DNA from: an uncultured delta proteobacterium | GTDB taxonomy: Bacteria; Desulfobacterota; RBG-13-43-22 | Direction of reading: 5' to 3' | Assembly (NCBI GenBank): GCA_963843145.1 | Contig: CAWJJC010000020.1 | Span: forward strand, 128,001-192,000 | DNA length: 64,000 nucleotides | In this document: positions 1 through 5,273 of the stretch, in pieces | Layout: each line of letters begins with the position of its first letter | Numbering within the stretch: position 1 is the first letter of the stretch | Notes under the pieces: model-generated | Seen by the model: only the letters and a program-made list of their open reading frames with translations | The model's database searches: none | Told to the model about the DNA's origin: nothing | Program-made: the position numbers and the translations under genes

Positions 1-922
1 GGAGCGCTTGGACTGCACCGAGAAGCGGTTGTGGGGCTTGATGCCGCCCTTCGGCGACATAAAAGGTGGATTGGCGAGGATCACGTCGGCGTATTCATTC
101 CACCGGTCCTGACTCGTGAGGGCGTCGTACTCGGCAATGTGTGGGTCGGCGAAACCGTGCAGGTACAGGTTCACCAGGGACAAACGCACCATATCAGGCG
201 AAATGTCGTAGCCCTTGAAATTCTGCGCGAGGCGTCCCTTTTCGTCTGGCGTCAAATTGATTGCGGATTGAGGATTGCTGATTGTGGATTTGGCAGAAGT
301 TCCGTGCATGATGATTGGCTCAGAATTGGCTTTCAGGATGTGTTTATACGCCGAGATCAGGAACCCGGCGGTGCCGCAGGCCGGGTCGAGCACGGTCTCG
401 TTCTTCTTCGGGTCGATTACTTCAACGATGAAATCGATGATGTGGCGCGGGAGTGCGGAACTGCCCGGCGTCGCCCTGGGAGCCGAGCACGGAAAGCAGA
501 TACTCGAAGGCGTCGCCGAGGCGCTCGCTGTGGTCGTATTCGAACTCGTCGATGACCTTGAGGAACATCTTTAGCGTTTCAGGGTCGCGGTAGGGCAGAT
601 AGGCGTTCTTGAAGATGTCGCGGAAAAGGGGCGGTATGCCGGGGTTCTCCGGCATCTTGGCGATGGCCTCGGCGTAGAGATTCAGGGTTTCAAAGCCGCC
701 CAAGCCGGAGCGCATGAGCTTGGCCCAGCCGTAGCGGGCGAACTTATTGGCGAAAAACTTGCGCTTCCCGCCGAACTCCTCGCTCTCGGCGTCCATGTCG
801 TCCATGAACTTGTAGATCAGGGCGATGGTGATCTGCTCGACCTGGCTCTTGGGATCGGGCACCTTGCCGACGAGGATGTCGCGGGCGGTGTCGATGCGGC
901 GTTTGGTGGCGGAGTCTAGCAT
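1..922 (-). CDS. hsdM: Type I R-M methyltransferase subunit (N6-adenine), 3' part outside window, apparent +1 frameshift at ~449-451
   Basis: ORF 422..922 reads MLDSATKRRID...AGQFRTP. Removing one base of the GGG at 449-451 continues as RHIIDFIV...DPACGTAGF (SAM motif)...NPPF (catalytic motif) to the window edge. Confidence 0.9.
260..290. repeat. Heptamer tandem repeat arm inside hsdM coding sequence
   Basis: ATTGCGG ATTGAGG ATTGCTG ATTGTGG ATT; read in the hsdM frame as KSTISNPQSAI. Confidence 0.85.
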
Positions 923-1296
923 TTTGGATTTCTGATTGTGGATTTTGGATTGTTTTCCTTCGCCGTCCGTCCGGAGGCGGTGAAAATGGCCGTCAGTTCT
1001 TCGGCTTCCTGATGAATTGGAGAAACGAGTTCGAGATTGAGAAGTCCCCCGTCCATGATCATTTCGAGCCAGAAAGCCGACTCATCAGCCTCTTCGGCGA
1101 CAGTGCCGATCTTGGCGATGAATTCGGCTTTTGATCGGCTGCGGCAGGCGGCGCGGTAGTTGGCGCCTACGGATGTTCCGCTACGAATCAGTTGGCTGCC
1201 GATTGCCCGTCCCGTTGTTGTTTTCGGCAACGCATCGACGAGATTCATCACGCGCAACCCGAACTGTTTGGTTCTGGCCTTTAGTTCTTGACTCAT
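916..1296 (-). CDS. Four-helix-bundle protein (TIGR02436 / 23S rRNA IVS protein / Avd-like family)
   Basis: 126 aa with family motif QLIRSGTSVGANYRAACRSRSKAEFIAKIGTVAEEADESAFWLE. Confidence 0.92.
   Translation of the reverse strand: MSQELKARTKQFGLRVMNLVDALPKTTTGRAIGSQLIRSGTSVGANYRAACRSRSKAEFIAKIGTVAEEADESAFWLEMIMDGGLLNLELVSPIHQEAEELTAIFTASGRTAKENNPKSTIRNPKC
921..951. repeat. Heptamer repeat arm at the 3' end of the four-helix-bundle gene, overlapping the hsdM ATG
   Basis: ATTTTGG ATTTCTG ATTGTGG ATTTTGG ATT. Confidence 0.9.
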
Positions 1297-1311
1297 TCAT
1301 AACAGTTTTTT

Positions 1312-1342
1312 AATCCACAATCAGCAATCCAAAATCCACAAT
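1312..1342. repeat. Heptamer repeat arm upstream of the four-helix-bundle gene, inverted relative to 921-951 and 260-290
   Basis: AATCCAC AATCAGC AATCCAA AATCCAC AAT. Confidence 0.9.
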
Positions 1343-1349
1343 TTACTTC

Positions 1350-2177
1350 CTATCCCTTGAGTTGTTTGACTGTCGGCGCAGCAGTAAGCACCTGCATCTG
1401 GCGGATGGCGATCTCGTTCAGGCGTTTGAGCCGGTCCCCTTGCGGCAGACCCATATGAATGAGTTCGGCGTTCATGCCTTCGATGTTGGCCAGTACCAGT
1501 AACTGTTCCACCGTGGCATATTCTCTCATGTTGTCCTCAAGTTTTGGATTGGCGTCGCGCCACTCCTTCGCGGTCTGCCCGAAGAGAGCAATATTGAGTA
1601 CATCCGCCTCAGTGGCGTAGGTGATGGCCGCCTGAGCCGGAGTAACGGCAGCAGGAATAAGATGGGCTTTCACGGCATCCGTGTGGATGCGGTAATTAAG
1701 CTTGGACAAAGTGCGGTTGAGGTTCCAGGATAAGGAGAGGCGACGATTTTCGTCGTCCTTGAGGCGCTGGAATTCCTTGATGAGGTAGAGCTTAAACTCA
1801 GGACTGAGCCAGGAGCCGAACTCAAAGGCTATGTCCTTGTGGGCATAGGTGCCGCCGTAGCGCCCGGCACTGGCGACTATACCACGGGCGGCAGTGCGCT
1901 CAACCCACTTCTTGGCTGATAGAAAAAAACTATTCCTTCCTGCCTCGTTTTTAATTCCCTCGAATTCGAGGGAATTAAAAACGGGATTGTGGATTTGCTC
2001 CCACACACCAAGGAAAAGAACGGTGTCTTTGTTCTTAAGCCACTGTTCGATCAGGGCGTTACCCCCATCAAAATGCTTTACCATATCAGTGAGTGAGATG
2101 AAATCGCCCTGGTCCTTGGAAAGAATGGTTATAGCCGTTCCCTGGACTTCTATGATTGCTTTTTTGCCCTTGCCCAT
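1350..2177 (-). CDS. KilA-N domain DNA-binding protein
   Basis: DFISLTDM...GRYGGTYAHKDIAFEFGSWLSPEFKLYLIKEFQRLK signature; GGGA RBS upstream. Confidence 0.9.
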   Translation of the reverse strand: MGKGKKAIIEVQGTAITILSKDQGDFISLTDMVKHFDGGNALIEQWLKNKDTVLFLGVWEQIHNPVFNSLEFEGIKNEAGRNSFFLSAKKWVERTAARGIVASAGRYGGTYAHKDIAFEFGSWLSPEFKLYLIKEFQRLKDDENRRLSLSWNLNRTLSKLNYRIHTDAVKAHLIPAAVTPAQAAITYATEADVLNIALFGQTAKEWRDANPKLEDNMREYATVEQLLVLANIEGMNAELIHMGLPQGDRLKRLNEIAIRQMQVLTAAPTVKQLKG

Positions 2178-2186
2178 GGTTCCCCC

Positions 2187-4733
2187 CTATGCCACAAACT
2201 GGTTCAAGGATACGTAATCTTTGACATATTCAGGAATGATCGTGCGGTACTTGGGCGGCACGGCCTTGAAATCGCGGGTGGAAAAGATTGGATTGGTGGC
2301 CAGGTCGGTGAACTGCTTTTCTTCGATAATGTGGCGCAATTGGCCGCTGGTGACGTAGGCTTTGAAATAGGTCTTGATGGCGGGGATGGCCTCAGCCTCT
2401 TGGGGCTTGGTATCGGCCACGAACTTGGCGAATTCCTCTTCCAGCAGTTCGTCCTTGGACTTGAACCGCGGGATGAGGCCGAAAATCTTCTCCAGGATCT
2501 CCCGCAGGGCCAGGCGTCGGTCCACGGCGGCAGCTTTGCGCAACTTGTGGAGGGTGTAGTACTCCTCGGGTTTGTCGAAGACCTCGCGGTTTACGTAGTC
2601 GATGACGCGGTCCCACTGCCCGGCCTCGACGGCTTTCGCGATGATCTCGTTCTCGCGCACGGTATCTTCGAATTTCTCGAAGAACATACGGTCGATCTTC
2701 ATCCCTTCGAAGCCGATATCAAAAATTTTCATGGAGGCGAGAATATCCTCGCCCAAGTGCTCGTAAGCGCCGCCGTACACCACTGGTCCCCTTCCACCGG
2801 TGTTTTCGCTCCCTTTGCCCTGGGGCCGGGGAAGCTTCAGCACCTCGTCATAGTTGAACTTCTCCTCGAAGTATTCGCAATTGGCGAAGAAGTCGAAAAG
2901 CTTGAAGGCGGACTTCTGCGGTTGTAAGACGCCCTCTTTGAGGCCGTCGTCGAAAAGCTGTTCGAGAAAGTTGTGCTTGCGGGTGCCGCGTCCCTTGATC
3001 TGGATGAAGTCCGTCGGCGAGAAAATCGGTCGAAACAGACCGAGATTGAGGATGTCGGTGCAATCGTAGCCGGTGGTCATCATGCCGACAGTCACGCAGA
3101 CGCGGGCCTTGCTGGTCCTGTAGGCGGGCAGGAAGTTGGTCGAACCGAGCAGGTTGTTGTTGGCGAAGTTGATGGTGAACTGCTGGGCGTCGGGGATCGT
3201 TGAGGTGACCTGAACGGCGAAGTCGGACTGGTACCTGCCGGGGAACAGGCGATCGGCCATCTGATTGAAGATCTGTACCAGCTTCGCGGCGTGATTTTGG
3301 CTGACAGTGAAGATGATGGATTTGCCGATCTCTCCGCTGACGGGATCGCGCAGGGCGTTTTCCAGAAAGGTCTTGCAGAAGAGCTGGTTGGTGGCCTTAG
3401 AAAAGAAGCTCTTCTCGAAATCGCTCTTCCGCTTCCTTAAGGTCTCCTGCTGGTCTTCATCCTCTTCGTCAGTGAAGGAGCATATGAAGCCCCGTTCGGA
3501 GAGCAATTGGGTTGTAATTTCAGTGCGGGCATCCACCACCGTGGGGTTGATCAGGTAGCCTTCCTTCACGCCGTCGAGCAGCGAGTAACGATAGGTTGGC
3601 TGGCTGTTCTCGCAGCCGAAGGTCCGGTAGGTGTCCAGCAACAGTCGGCGCTCGGCTTCGCGCGGGTCGCGGGTGGAAGGATTGGTCTTGTCAAACCGTT
3701 TAAGGTAGTCGCGGGGCGTAGCGGTAAGGCCGAGCTTGTAGCCGATGAAGTAGTCGAAGACGGCGCGGGCGTTGCCGCCGATGGAGCGGTGGGCTTCGTC
3801 GGAAATGACCAGGTCGAAATCGGTTGGCGAGAAGAGCCGCTGGTACTTGTTGTTGAAGAGCAGCGACTGCACCGTGGTGACCACTATTTCCGCCCGCCGC
3901 CAGTCGTCACGGTTTTCCTTGTAGATCACCGTCTGAAAGTCAGGGGACAGCAGCGCCTTGAAGGCCTTCCTGGCCTGATCCTCCAGTTCGAGGCGATCCA
4001 CCAGAAACAGCACGCGTCGGGCATTGCCGGATCGGAGGAAGAGTTTGATGACGGCGGCGGCCGTGAGGGTCTTGCCGGTGCCGGTGGCCATCTCGAACAG
4101 GAAGCGGTCTTTGCCGTCCTTCACGGCCCGCTGCAGGGCGTGAATGGCCTTCAACTGATAGGGCCGCAAGAAACGCAGTTTATTGGTCAGGATGTAGCCG
4201 GAACGCTCCGTCTCATTGCGCCAGGCCGCTTCGGATTGATAGTTCGGACGCTGAGTCAGCACGATGTAGTCTTCGTCGACCGGATCCTCGATTAGGCGTT
4301 GCGGGTTGGGCCTGACCTGCTGGTAGCCGATCACCGAGTCCGGCGTTGGGAAGGACGTAATAAGATAGGGGTTGCCGCGCTCCAGGTCCCAGAAGTAGTG
4401 CAAGTTGCCGTTGGAGAGGATCACGAACCGGCAGTTCTGGGACTTGGCGTATTTGCGGGCCTGCTCCTTGCCGACGAGCGGGTTCCTGTCCTCCGATTTG
4501 GCCTCTAGGACGATGAGCGGGAAACCTTTGCTGTCGAGCAGCAGGAAGTCGATGAAGCCCTTACTCGTCTTCTCGAAGTTCTCGCCCAGCGCTTCCAGAT
4601 CGGCTGACTTGATCGTCACGCTGGGTTCCAGGCGGATGTTAGCGTACGCGCCTCCTTCCGGAAAGAAGCGCCAGCCTGCCGCTTCGAGCAGCCTGTTGAT
4701 CTTTATACGGGCAGTGGCTTCTTTATTTGCCAT
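2187..4733 (-). CDS. hsdR: Type I restriction enzyme R subunit (nuclease + SF2 helicase)
   Basis: N-terminal D...LEAK nuclease motif, MATGTGKT Walker A, DEAH, TAT, QIKGRGTR motif VI. Confidence 0.92.
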   Translation of the reverse strand: MANKEATARIKINRLLEAAGWRFFPEGGAYANIRLEPSVTIKSADLEALGENFEKTSKGFIDFLLLDSKGFPLIVLEAKSEDRNPLVGKEQARKYAKSQNCRFVILSNGNLHYFWDLERGNPYLITSFPTPDSVIGYQQVRPNPQRLIEDPVDEDYIVLTQRPNYQSEAAWRNETERSGYILTNKLRFLRPYQLKAIHALQRAVKDGKDRFLFEMATGTGKTLTAAAVIKLFLRSGNARRVLFLVDRLELEDQARKAFKALLSPDFQTVIYKENRDDWRRAEIVVTTVQSLLFNNKYQRLFSPTDFDLVISDEAHRSIGGNARAVFDYFIGYKLGLTATPRDYLKRFDKTNPSTRDPREAERRLLLDTYRTFGCENSQPTYRYSLLDGVKEGYLINPTVVDARTEITTQLLSERGFICSFTDEEDEDQQETLRKRKSDFEKSFFSKATNQLFCKTFLENALRDPVSGEIGKSIIFTVSQNHAAKLVQIFNQMADRLFPGRYQSDFAVQVTSTIPDAQQFTINFANNNLLGSTNFLPAYRTSKARVCVTVGMMTTGYDCTDILNLGLFRPIFSPTDFIQIKGRGTRKHNFLEQLFDDGLKEGVLQPQKSAFKLFDFFANCEYFEEKFNYDEVLKLPRPQGKGSENTGGRGPVVYGGAYEHLGEDILASMKIFDIGFEGMKIDRMFFEKFEDTVRENEIIAKAVEAGQWDRVIDYVNREVFDKPEEYYTLHKLRKAAAVDRRLALREILEKIFGLIPRFKSKDELLEEEFAKFVADTKPQEAEAIPAIKTYFKAYVTSGQLRHIIEEKQFTDLATNPIFSTRDFKAVPPKYRTIIPEYVKDYVSLNQFVA

Positions 4734-4947
4734 TCGGTTTCAATTTTCTGTTCGTCCTACGTGGGTGGCCGATATGATAGCCAAAAAGGTCATCCGGAGC
4801 TCCCAGTATGGGCGATCGGGGGATTGGTGCGGCATGGTAGAAGGCAGGCAGGGAACGAACGCTGGCATTCCTAACACCCATGTGGGCCGGCAAAGCGGCA
4901 ACTCATTGAAAGAAGGGGTTAAAAAGTAAGAAAAGAAATTTCATTTG

Positions 4948-4976
4948 ACTTTAATTCGGAAGAATAGGGTTGTCAA
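4948..4976 (-). promoter_or_regulatory. Putative sigma70 promoter of the hsdR operon
   Basis: Minus strand TTGACA-17 nt-TAAAGT. Confidence 0.5.
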
Positions 4977-5095
4977 GGACTTTTGCAGTAAATACAAATG
5001 AATAGAGAATCAGGGAAGCTTGGGGGAGCGAAAAGTTGGAAAATTTCCGCAATCTAACCGCTGAGGTACTCGCAAAAGTCCGTCAGATCGTGCTT

Positions 5096-5134
5096 GTCAT
5101 TCCGAGTCCCGCGATAGCGCGGGACGAAGAATCT
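5096..5134. repeat. REP-like palindrome
   Basis: GTCATTCCGAGTCCCGCGATAGCGCGGGACGAAGAATCT; GTCATTCC start shared with the element at 36829. Confidence 0.6.
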
Positions 5135-5189
5135 TGTTTTTTAAAGGGAGGGTTTTAAACGGAATTGGGTTTGGTCCGGCTCAATTATT

Positions 5190-5213
5190 CACAGCCGAGG
5201 GCGGCTGTGCTAC
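5190..5213 (-). repeat. GTAG-type REP-like hairpin
   Basis: Minus strand GTAG CACAGCCG CCCT CGGCTGTG. Confidence 0.65.
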
Positions 5214-5273
5214 ATGAAAGCGCAATGGAATCCCTGTCCGCTGGAGCGCCAGGTCAGCCGCTGGGAATGCTGA

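Follow-up and report, generated by a model that had tools for sequence, protein, structure and literature searches.

A 427-nt segment of an uncultured delta proteobacterium genome is a discrete insertion in a type I restriction operon, there or missing as one unit. It lies at positions 923-1349 of the window, the 64,000-nt stretch of one contig that was analysed. The segment is built like a 23S rRNA intervening sequence (IVS) but is located in an mRNA operon. It is probably a self-contained IVS-type cassette, a selfish rider of the operon and not a working part of the restriction system, and the operon itself is judged, within the same reading, likely to travel horizontally.

Anatomy of the cassette and its operon

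The cassette lies between the stop codon of a protein-coding KilA-N gene and the start codon of a fused hsdM-hsdS gene (hsdMS), and not inside a 23S rRNA gene (Table 1). An Rfam scan of window positions 1-5000 finds no rRNA match and only two matches, both at chance level.

Table 1. Features of the cassette and the surrounding restriction operon (window coordinates)
Feature	Position	Strand	Description	Basis
Fused hsdM-hsdS gene, 5' part	1..922	-	835-852 aa in relatives; broken in source genome	
Third, solo arm copy	260..290	-	oriented as 3' arm; 90% complementary to 1312-1342; in frame within hsdM	
Four-helix-bundle gene	916..1296	-	126 aa; S23p / 23S_rRNA_IVP family	profile matches
3' arm	921..951	-	sense strand C/A-rich; holds A and U of the hsdMS AUG	repeat search
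Whole inserted cassette	923..1349	-	427 nt; from KilA-N stop codon (1352-1350) to hsdMS start codon (922-920)	
5' arm	1312..1342	-	four GATTnnn-type heptamers plus 3 nt; sense strand G/T-rich	repeat search
GAAGTAA spacer, KilA-N stop to 5' arm	1343..1349	-	confined to filled allele; absent from 5/5 empty sites	
KilA-N domain gene	1350..2177	-	275 aa, intact	PF04383, 71.5 bits
hsdR	2187..4733	-	848 aa, intact	

Each arm is a run of tandem GATTnnn-type heptamers. The first-pass annotation, made from the letters alone, described two inverted 31-nt arms bracketing the gene, a 24-nt pairing with one mismatch when the arms are offset by one heptamer, and the AU of the hsdM AUG within the downstream arm. 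A repeat search bears out all three. The full arms (921-951 and 1312-1342, 31 nt) are 81% complementary, the pairing shifted by one heptamer (921-944 and 1312-1335, 24 nt) is 96% complementary, and a shorter core (935-952 and 1325-1342, 18 nt) is 100% complementary; the start codon at 922-920 overlaps the downstream arm. The inverted-repeat score of the locus is 21.5. The best scores of paired flanks with equal geometry at 1500 random places in the source genome have a mean of 8.1, a 99th percentile of 11.5 and a maximum of 14.

A solo copy of the arm, overlooked in the first-pass annotation, occupies positions 260-290. It sits in a net 45-nt in-frame insertion (approximately 253-319) in a loop of the HsdM methylase domain, which appears as a 15-aa gap relative to the orthologs in loci L042 and L043 and as 24 + 3 + 18 extra nucleotides relative to L130. 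This solo arm is the only other copy of the cassette's arm in the genome, and nothing shows movement of the cassette within the source genome.

Folding of the minus strand across 900-1370 predicts that the arm-arm helix closes both the minimum-energy and the centroid structure. The predicted energy is -161.3 kcal/mol compared with -133.1 +/- 5.6 kcal/mol for 100 shuffles (z -5.04), none of which folds as well. Terminal inverted repeats, a stem of 24-31 bp and an S23p ORF in the loop, all within 427 nt, give the segment the structure of an IVS. A promoter and terminator scan finds no promoter-like or terminator-like site within the cassette, and an RNase III gene is present in the genome (249 bits, cut-off 166).

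The 126-aa protein matches TIGR02436 at 75.4 bits (cut-off 24) over positions 3-107 of 109, in agreement with the earlier family assignment, and PF05635 at 51 bits (cut-off 33.8). Residues 5-115 match the sequence of PDB entry 2RLD (E 5.5e-15), which has five chains of that sequence. These scores, above the family cut-offs, predict a four-helix-bundle fold. Relatives at 43-83% identity share a conserved core and span at least nine phyla. In a control set, Bacteroides thetaiotaomicron also has a TIGR02436 match. The family motif is given as GxxRxxxSxxxNxxE in the accessible text of PMC3936711; the source protein reads R-SGT-S-VGA-N-YR-A, with R, S and N present and the final E replaced by A. 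Among 17 aligned relatives, the A is kept in those of at least 51% identity, whereas the more distant L143, L150 and L159 have E, so the substitution is a subfamily trait and not a sign of decay.

We infer both RNase III processing of cassettes and their means of spread. Read-through from the host operon would transcribe the cassette, and the transcribed arms would form a helix of 24-31 bp. The cell's RNase III may cut this helix as it cuts rRNA IVS stems, which would split the operon RNA without splicing. The 3' arm encodes the last ~11 codons of the four-helix-bundle ORF, whose TAG stop overlaps the hsdMS start; the overlap reads ATGCTAG in the source cassette and in L125, and ATGCTTGA in L130. 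Because the helix buries the hsdMS AUG, hsdMS translation would need ribosomes that cross the 3' arm. Such ribosomes would read the ORF through the arm, stop at the TAG over the AUG and reinitiate.

Any translational coupling of this kind is moot in the source copy, given the absence of a Shine-Dalgarno sequence that relatives show, an extra base near the start and a broken hsdMS. The extra base is 1291, identified relative to cassette contigs in all four runs compared; as read from the sequence, it moves the start to the second ATG. hsdMS carries a single extra base near 448-452 (base 452 is missing from most contigs of relatives), a second one beyond the left end of the window and an in-frame stop in the S part. 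In the source genome, the cassette would be a single-copy immigrant that arrived with the operon, at a locus that is decaying.

The buried AUG, and an upstream ORF that ends on it, are also what would be expected of a regulatory device of the restriction system, with hsdMS translation switched by the four-helix-bundle protein through binding to the period-7 stem. The same junction is retained in L125 and L130, the cassette of L151 precedes another hsdM-like gene (~30% identity), and family genes are reported inside cas loci in the accessible text of PMC3936711. Such a switch dedicated to hsdM, one of the options raised in the first-pass annotation, is nevertheless unlikely. Among close relatives of the four-helix-bundle gene, 33 of 37 show no such hsd or KilA-N gene in the surrounding 2.5 kb, and family cassettes in the source genome sit between unrelated genes throughout. 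Related operons manage without the cassette, and the hsdMS of the source genome is broken.

Empty and filled alleles of the locus

Empty alleles confirm that arm, gene and arm form a discrete unit, as the first-pass annotation had proposed when it suggested a search for empty sites at hsdR-KilA-hsdM loci. The same hsdM (78-90% aa) is carried by 5 of 80 KilA-N loci (L022, L041, L042, L043 and L082), and in each its start lies 0-3 nt past the KilA-N stop. Contigs of two DNA runs (X1 and X3) and of an RNA library (X2) skip exactly 923-1349 and join 922 to 1350, with only the letters GG or GGG at the joint. The filled form is seen as well, in contigs X4 912-1290 and X2 1001-1418. In a run search with sampled words of the stretch, no run contained half or more of them (best 0.22); the runs were used as contigs, in which RNA ends are not visible. 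In one X2 contig, with a side of 28 nt, 952 is joined to 1311 across unresolved letters; this contig may represent a gene-less relative or another repeat and is set aside.

The joint in the RNA library could be taken for an mRNA intervening sequence that is cut out with its flanks rejoined, restoring the KilA-N-hsdMS junction in RNA, as the first-pass annotation also considered. The same joint is present in the DNA runs X1 and X3, with two to three other letters, and the genomic empty allele of L022 has the same arrangement. The joint thus reflects a DNA allele carried by relatives, and rejoining in RNA has next to no likelihood. Excision of an rRNA IVS by RNase III leaves the fragments unligated.

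The empty alleles also revise the expected shape of the vacant site. Deletion of the cassette had been predicted to leave TAG GAAGTAA ATG; the arithmetic is right, but the real empty sites lack GAAGTAA. This 7-nt spacer is confined to the filled allele and so was no ribosome-binding site before the insertion. The accompanying claim that the cassette separates hsdM from its ribosome-binding site stands insofar as the former signals are split off, but the likely Shine-Dalgarno sequence of the empty alleles (AAGGGA/AAGGA) lies in the final KilA-N codons.

The KilA-N gene is itself a separable insert at the hsdR/hsdM junction, and alleles with and without it are found. In L125 (an Anaerolineales MAG) and L130 (an Armatimonadota MAG), the hsdR stop is followed by the cassette and then the hsdM ATG, so that in two other phyla this hsdM start is immediately preceded by the same cassette lineage. 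In L034 (a Nitrospira MAG), the KilA-N stop is followed by an arm of the same type and a truncated gene. Among hsdM relatives, the closest three (92-95% aa) are those of the three filled alleles. A single ancient acquisition that travelled with the operon explains the locus. Comparison of filled and empty junctions reveals no evident target-site duplication at the source site, and the cassette holds no recognisable recombinase; gene-bearing copies hold only the four-helix-bundle gene. Mobility is therefore deduced solely from patterns of presence and absence.

Arms, orientation and gene-less copies across the family

Inverted heptamer arms are strongly enriched around family genes in the source genome and elsewhere, an outcome for which the first-pass annotation had proposed a survey. 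With arms called at an inverted-repeat score of at least 15, above the maximum of 14 in the 1500 random controls, they flank 10 of the 12 family genes of the source genome and 19 of the 26 found in 20 related genomes. Among close relatives, drawn from at least nine phyla, 28 of 34 have them. Heptamers differ from one cassette lineage to the next but stay complementary between the two arms: 44 different dominant units are found among 54 cassettes, and in 40 of these 54 both arms share one unit (at most one mismatch) in inverse orientation. Units agree to within one mismatch in 33-56% of cassette pairs at 65% protein identity or more, and in 0-1% below that level. A heptamer "code" read by the protein was considered and rejected, as the pattern fits co-descent with fast turnover of the arms and not stable recognition.

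Stem mismatches served as a test of selection on the sense RNA, with G-U set against A-C. Only stems scoring at least 15 were kept, which removed 9 of 38 and 6 of 34, and L138, L153 and L155, whose flanks are missing, were omitted. The first set has 31 G-U and 56 A-C mismatches in 29 stems (G-U ahead in 4, A-C in 18), the second 30 and 27 in 28 stems (8 and 7), and the 57 pooled stems 61 and 83 on the sense strand (12 and 25 stems, p 0.047). The test is not robust and supports no conclusion about the strand. With no excess of G-U, nothing points to selection on sense RNA in particular, and the complementarity of the arms may be kept at the DNA level. G exceeds C in the 5' arm of 42 of the 57 stems.

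Cassettes lie in sense within gene arrays. Across 67 cassettes, the upstream neighbour is co-oriented in all 43 determinable cases, and the downstream neighbour is co-oriented in 41 of 45.

Gene-less copies, either arm-loop-arm hairpins or solo arms, number in the hundreds in the source genome and vary between close relatives; some retain the 5' part of the gene, and two sister families in the source genome have ~70 and ~130 arm matches. Away from family genes there are 377 period-7 tracts; the unit of 312 of them differs by at most one mismatch from that of a resident cassette, compared with 24% of random heptamers. Dependence of the tracts on a family gene is suggested across genomes by two in which the family has no match: G014 (98% complete) has no heptamer tract in 400 kb and G015 (87% complete) has three in 104 kb, one inverted pair included. 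The corresponding counts are 11 in 400 kb for G013 and 36 in 262 kb for G009.

Turnover is visible between genomes of the same genus. Where flanks are 91-97% identical, sites differ in carrying a hairpin or a solo arm. At one orthologous site, G000 and G002 share the same arms around unrelated loops; at another, the whole cassette is missing and one arm is left, the arms there being themselves palindromic. The number of heptamer units also varies between copies. A separate segment, C28:284947-285817, is absent from G002 and resembles an insertion-sequence remnant, outside the cassette class.

These patterns leave room for arms that act mainly at the DNA level, as hairpins or cruciforms or as dispersed homology for the capture, swap, inversion or deletion of cargo, whether or not a host enzyme, for instance a Y1 (IS200/RAYT-type) transposase, takes part; the RNA helix would then be a by-product. 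Exchanged loops, hairpin and solo-arm differences, the single arm left where arms are palindromic and the missing G-U excess all suit this account, as does quick heptamer change with the arms still matched, which copying between arms predicts. Elsewhere in the genome there are 11 Y1_Tnp matches. The near-universal sense orientation argues on the other side: a symmetrical DNA palindrome needs no orientation, so the bias suggests that the gene has to be transcribed. The single relative studied experimentally is processed as RNA, according to the accessible text of PMC4990558, no transposase adjoins the examined cassettes, and the source site has no evident target duplication. Action mainly on DNA is a possibility that falls clearly short of the preferred account of a transcribed, IVS-type operon rider. 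It overlaps that account in part and differs from it on the molecule under selection.

The absence of any element, with neutral slippage expanding simple sequence that happens to flank a gene, is very improbable. Unit number does differ between copies, and the excess of heptamer repeats in bacteria is ascribed to slippage in the accessible text of PMC4692102. Slippage leaves unexplained both the matched inverted arms around one gene family, genome after genome, and the presence or absence of the whole unit, and the controls at 1500 random places also disfavour it.

The selfish, IVS-type cassette of the restriction operon could belong to something broader. Tentatively, the four-helix-bundle gene with its inverted heptamer arms would represent a very widespread mobile element in its autonomous form, one undescribed in the papers searched. 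It would ride operons in sense, give rise to hundreds of gene-less hairpins and solo arms in each genome, and spread or be maintained through the S23p/Avd-like protein and no known transposase. The 23S rRNA IVS and the excess of heptamer repeats in bacteria would be its two visible faces. That every protein lineage would recognise a heptamer of its own, a narrower form of this idea, is less likely, as units are already unrelated at 50-65% protein identity.

Relation to known elements and consequences

The closest parallel is the 23S rRNA IVS of Coxiella burnetii. The accessible text of PMC4990558 describes an IVS of 428-444 nt that encodes S23p, with a 28-bp terminal stem that RNase III cuts mid-stem in vitro and tandem heptamers before the ORF, and calls it a selfish genetic element, the reading also given here to the source cassette. 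ORF-bearing 23S IVSs are likewise reported for Leptospira (through citations in the same text), Xanthomonas and Brucella. The cassette and the Coxiella IVS have in common an S23p/PF05635 gene, their size (427 and 428-444 nt), a long terminal stem (24-31 and 28 bp), heptamers in the arm before the ORF with a unit number that varies between strains, and a weak or absent Shine-Dalgarno sequence. Unlike the Coxiella IVS, the cassette lies between protein genes of an operon, its ORF extends across the 3' arm as far as the start codon of the following gene, and its excision by RNase III is putative. The accessible account of the Coxiella heptamers presents them, for one species, as direct repeats that precede the ORF and not as a two-armed frame general to the gene family (PMC4990558).

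Convergent heptamer pairs are known from Xanthomonas (GGGAATC) and Nostoc (GGGGA(C/T)T) (Rehm et al., 2015, PMC4692102), and heptamer repeats of Beggiatoaceae and Calothrix are cited in the accessible texts of PMC4692102 and PMC4853749. Common to the Xanthomonas and Nostoc repeats and those described here are intergenic tandem heptamers, often in close convergent pairs (70 cases in one genome and 75 in the other, as given in the accessible text), and length and sequence that vary between close relatives. The repeats in that report are studied as simple repeats that form G-quadruplexes; its accessible text draws no link to a four-helix-bundle gene, and "23S" is absent from its main text. Here, in contrast, the repeats frame four-helix-bundle genes, and the gene-less copies are cognate to resident genes.

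Avd of diversity-generating retroelements has a related four-helix-bundle fold and family, according to the accessible text of PMC10053308. Unlike Avd systems, the cassette has no reverse transcriptase nearby: the genome has eight RVT_1 matches, none of them in the window, and the only one on this contig (C20:400502) is ~271 kb from the gene. Like MITEs and REP/BIME elements, the cassettes are short, multi-copy, palindromic, mostly intergenic and variable between relatives, and some of them derive by internal deletion from a gene-bearing copy. The cassettes differ from both in their lineage-specific arms of tandem heptamers, in a sole gene without a recognisable transposase fold, and in the lack of a target-site duplication at the source site.

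Genes of the same family occur inside CRISPR-cas loci, for example between cmr3 and cmr2 (Zhang, Doak and Ye, 2013, PMC3936711). The accessible text of that study lists 23S_rRNA_IVP among CRISPR-Cas-associated functions, and flanking arms are unmentioned in the passage; it draws no HEPN link to 23S_rRNA_IVP, and HEPN appears there only in the reference list. Like the gene studied here, the cas-locus genes are wedged between genes of a defence operon. The present data suggest that such genes are insertions and not partners. A literature text search for TIGR02436 by name, covering main texts, found nothing, and a family of IVS-like cassettes was not found described as a class in the literature searched.

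Annotations of family genes are widespread among bacterial genomes, and such genes are found in defence operons, in restriction operons here and in cas loci according to the accessible text of PMC3936711. If they are insertions that ride host transcription, readings of these genes as defence partners by guilt of association are wrong. The cassette joins three subjects that the papers found treat separately: ORF-bearing 23S IVSs, convergent intergenic heptamers and multi-copy "four helix bundle protein" genes. It also presents an element without a recognisable recombinase that is nonetheless present or absent as a whole and whose two arms change quickly and in concert. As a natural module, a long helix with a coupled small ORF ahead of a gene may influence how operon RNA is processed and translated.

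The cassette and its neighbours

Between the KilA-N gene and hsdM, a 427-nt cassette (923-1349, minus strand) carries a four-helix-bundle gene between two runs of heptamers. A repeat search pairs the arms over 31 nt in register (81% complementary) and, offset by one heptamer, over 24 nt with one mismatch and perfect pairing over 18 nt, confirming the repeat positions of the first-pass annotation. Profile searches match the gene product to TIGR02436 (75.4 bits) and PF05635 (51 bits), and it also matches the solved chain 2RLD (E 5.5e-15). The inverted-repeat score of the cassette is 21.5, against a best of 14 at 1500 random places in the source genome scored with identical flank geometry. When a 471-nt stretch is folded as RNA, the arm helix closes both the minimum-energy and the centroid structures; fold stability reaches a z of -5.04, equalled by 0 of 100 shuffles. 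The 3' arm supplies about 11 final codons of the four-helix-bundle gene, whose stop codon, TAG, overlaps the start of hsdM (ATGCTAG).

Features of the hsdR to hsdM-hsdS region, in window coordinates
Feature	Position	Strand	Remark
hsdR	4733-2187	minus	intact
KilA-N gene	2177-1350	minus	intact
GAAGTAA, seven bases	between KilA-N and 5' arm	minus	
5' arm	1342-1312	minus	run of GATTnnn-type heptamers
four-helix-bundle gene	1296-916	minus	126 codons
3' arm	951-921	minus	inverted run of GATTnnn-type heptamers
hsdM start	922	minus	
extra bases in hsdM-hsdS	near 448-452; ~230 nt past the window's left end		missing in 4/4 relatives compared

The repeat search places a third copy of the arm at 260-290, within an in-frame insertion (net 45 nt) that lies in a methylase-domain loop of HsdM and is missing in four comparison loci (L130, L125, L042 and L043). 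This solo arm inside hsdM is the one other copy of the cassette's arm in the source genome. Base 1291 is missing from cassette contigs in all four sequencing runs; being extra in the source genome, it puts the first ATG out of frame, so that the ORF, as read from the sequence, begins 4 nt further on, at the next ATG. The GGAGGG Shine-Dalgarno of the L125 and L131 cassettes is missing here as well. A scan of the 427 nt found no promoter-like or terminator-like site, and Rfam returned nothing for them. The source-genome cassette is a single copy with a slightly degraded 5' end ahead of a broken hsdMS gene; it is an immigrant that has failed to multiply in this genome.

Relatives carry hsdM fused to hsdS, in one gene of 835-852 aa. 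In the source genome, two single extra bases and an in-frame stop in the S part break this gene (G000:C20:126300-128922, on the contig of the window), and base 452 is also left out in most contigs of relatives. Either the restriction system is decaying, or these breaks are errors of assembly.

Other repeats occur nearby. The KilA-N coding sequence contains a perfect 19+19-nt palindrome without spacer at 1946-1983 (CGTTTTTAATTCCCTCGAA / TTCGAGGGAATTAAAAACG), and a comparable palindromic stretch persists in the putative KilA-N remnant of G002, a genome of the same genus. Upstream of hsdR lie an ~80-nt repeat (5062-5145) with matches at more than 20 places in the related genomes G001-G003 and a ~25-nt repeat (5190-5215) with 100% identity matches in G001, G002, G003 and G007; both contain small palindromes, and on sequence reading heptamers are not their basis.

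Heptamer arms across the TIGR02436 family

The source genome holds 16 TIGR02436 matches, 12 of them strong. Flanking inverted repeats score at least 17 at 10 of these 12, above all controls; another strong gene scores 12, a value reached by 9 of 1500 controls, and the one without inverted repeats is cut off at its 3' end. TIGR02436 matches are present in 18 of 20 related genomes, where 19 of 26 loci score at least 15, as do 28 of 34 close relatives with usable flanks. Inverted heptamer arms are therefore enriched around family members, the pattern that the first-pass annotation had proposed surveying.

The heptamers themselves are diverse. Among 54 cassettes there are 44 distinct dominant units, and in 40 of the 54 both arms carry the same unit (at most one mismatch) in inverse orientation. 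Varied heptamers yet matched arms amount to large-scale compensatory change. Two cassettes have agreeing units only at 65% protein identity or above, indicating far quicker turnover in the arms than in the protein, which keeps a well-conserved core in an alignment of relatives. The comparison of units with protein identity gave no sign of a protein reading a particular heptamer.

In the source genome, 3 kb separates two near-identical cassettes (L005 and L006) set among very long heptamer arrays (G000:C4:1-10200), including ~240 nt of GGAGGAC units (C4:9909-10155) and a 39-nt higher-order repeat in five copies (C4:3054-3247). The two cassettes have GACAGAT / GACGGAT as their unit, the same heptamer that has been reported from the Coxiella IVS (PMC4990558). 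Four longer proteins with open frames of 204-240 aa (G000:C29:16758, C16:5217, C28:474993 and C27:146307) match only the first two thirds of TIGR02436 at 28-33 bits; their inspected flanks contain no heptamer arms, and they seem to form a different, arm-less branch of the family.

A protein search recovers 37 relatives of the four-helix-bundle protein at 43-83% identity, in assemblies labelled with at least nine phyla. In an Anaerolineales MAG (L125, 83%) and an Armatimonadota MAG (L130, 68%), the order is hsdR stop, cassette, hsdM ATG, with no KilA-N, and the N-terminal parts of their hsdM (92% and 95% aa, respectively) are the closest to that of the source. The four-helix-bundle ORF ends in ATGCTAG in the source and L125 and in ATGCTTGA in L130. 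In a Nitrospira MAG (L034) the KilA-N stop is directly followed by the same type of arm, along with a truncated gene (76% aa, 46 residues). For the hsdM locus, a single old gain that travelled with the operon suffices as an explanation. The cassette of L151 precedes a different hsdM-like gene. Within 2.5 kb, 33 of the 37 relatives lack all of these hsd and KilA-N genes, which argues against the suggestion that the cassette is a translational switch for hsdM.

Among 67 cassettes examined, the upstream neighbour is co-oriented with the cassette gene in all 43 callable cases and the downstream neighbour in 41 of 45. As read from the flanking sequences, arms commonly touch the stop codon of the gene before and the start codon of the gene after. 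A symmetrical palindrome is indifferent to gene direction, so this bias implies that transcription of the gene by the host unit matters.

Empty alleles, gene-less copies and turnover

Among 80 loci encoding a KilA-N relative, five have the same hsdM (78-90% aa over the matched part). All five are empty alleles, the form that the discrete-unit proposal called for, with 0-3 nt from KilA-N stop to hsdM start (TAG CCC GTG; TGA GC ATG; TAA CC ATG; TAA TT ATG; overlapping TAATG). None of the five retains GAAGTAA or arm remnants, so GAAGTAA is not borne out as a ribosome-binding site joining KilA-N to hsdM; the likely Shine-Dalgarno of these alleles is AAGGGA/AAGGA, within the final KilA-N codons.

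Contigs from four sediment and freshwater-sediment runs tell a similar story. Position 922 is joined to 1350 with GG or GGG between, skipping exactly 427 nt, in single contigs of two DNA runs (X1 and X3) and an RNA library (X2); no such contig was found in the fourth run (X4). Filled-form contigs occur in X4 (912-1290) and X2 (1001-1418), the latter running from the end of KilA-N across the 5' arm into the four-helix-bundle gene. Since DNA runs contain the joined form too, it represents an allele in the DNA of relatives rather than spliced RNA, and the reading as a spliced mRNA is not supported. Together with the five empty alleles, these contigs uphold a mobile, discrete unit as far as presence and absence go. 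In further contigs the hsdM start meets the hsdR end across 16-20 other letters, and hence alleles with neither insert exist. The junction ahead of hsdM is a hot spot at which KilA-N and the cassette are gained and lost independently.

In G002, hsdR and hsdM are 95% and 91% identical in DNA to the source. Its hsdR/hsdM junction (L167, G002:C30:78308-79174) holds a putative KilA-N remnant and a longer four-helix-bundle-like ORF that matches TIGR02436 weakly (positions 4-69); short GTCCAC-type repeats come next, immediately ahead of the hsdM start. The hot spot thus takes up inserts of differing kinds.

Arms also occur without genes. The source genome contains 396 period-7 tracts, versus 12-24 for periods 5, 8, 10 and 11 in the identical test, and these form at least 63 inverted pairings with loops mostly of 20-170 nt. 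Of 377 tracts away from family genes, 161 repeat exactly the unit that dominates the arms of a resident cassette, while 312 lie within one mismatch of such a unit (24% for random heptamers). The arms of two resident cassettes have ~70 and ~130 genome matches, their genes 2-3 and 1, and some short gene-less copies keep the cassette's first 100-160 nt.

Over a 6-kb syntenic stretch between the source genome and G002 (flanks 91-97% identical), a hairpin stands against a solo arm twice, and one site has the same arms and unrelated loops. Elsewhere, G002 lacks a whole cassette that stands in the source genome, G001 and G003, and keeps a single arm of it. G002 also has a separate 174-nt insertion (L174, G002:C5:48895-49068) from another family of palindromic repeats (GTCATTGCGA...TCGCAATGAC); the source genome lacks it at a site that is otherwise 91-95% identical, and in this stretch two further repeat families of the source genome have dozens of copies in G002.

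Known systems and the level of action

ORF-bearing IVSs share the build of the cassette but differ in their defining trait, since the cassette lies outside 23S rRNA. MITEs resemble the cassette class in copy behaviour; the cassette differs in having neither a target duplication at the hsdM site nor a recognisable transposase. With no reverse transcriptase nearby, its gene is not a DGR Avd. No link was found between cassettes and the Y1 transposases or reverse transcriptases of the genome, which sit elsewhere. Convergent heptamer repeats of Xanthomonas and Nostoc have been described as G-quadruplex-forming simple repeats; the main text of that paper lacks the term '23S', and no link to the four-helix-bundle gene family was found there (PMC4692102). 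Family genes inside cas loci have been listed among functions associated with CRISPR-Cas (PMC3936711). Searches of open-access main texts found no paper in which the family is described as bracketed by inverted heptamer arms or as a cassette that rides in operons.

The Coxiella 23S IVS spans 428-444 nt; tandem heptamers precede its S23p ORF, and in vitro RNase III cuts its 28-bp terminal stem midway (PMC4990558). By analogy with this rRNA case, the arm helix would be cut by RNase III, whose gene is present in the source genome. The helix contains the A and U of the hsdMS AUG, ahead of which a Shine-Dalgarno is absent; translation from this buried start would need ribosomes arriving from the upstream ORF through the 3' arm. 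Ribosomes would read the four-helix-bundle ORF via that arm to the overlapping stop, enabling hsdMS translation. Stem mismatches on the sense strand show no G-U excess (61 G-U versus 83 A-C in 57 stems), which counts against an RNA-only view, and the exchange of arms and loops between relatives resembles DNA recombination. The RNA and DNA levels of action are not exclusive. The cassette class is a discrete, recurrent gene-plus-arms unit with matched arms, in sense orientation within gene arrays, accompanied by cognate gene-less copies and turning over between relatives.
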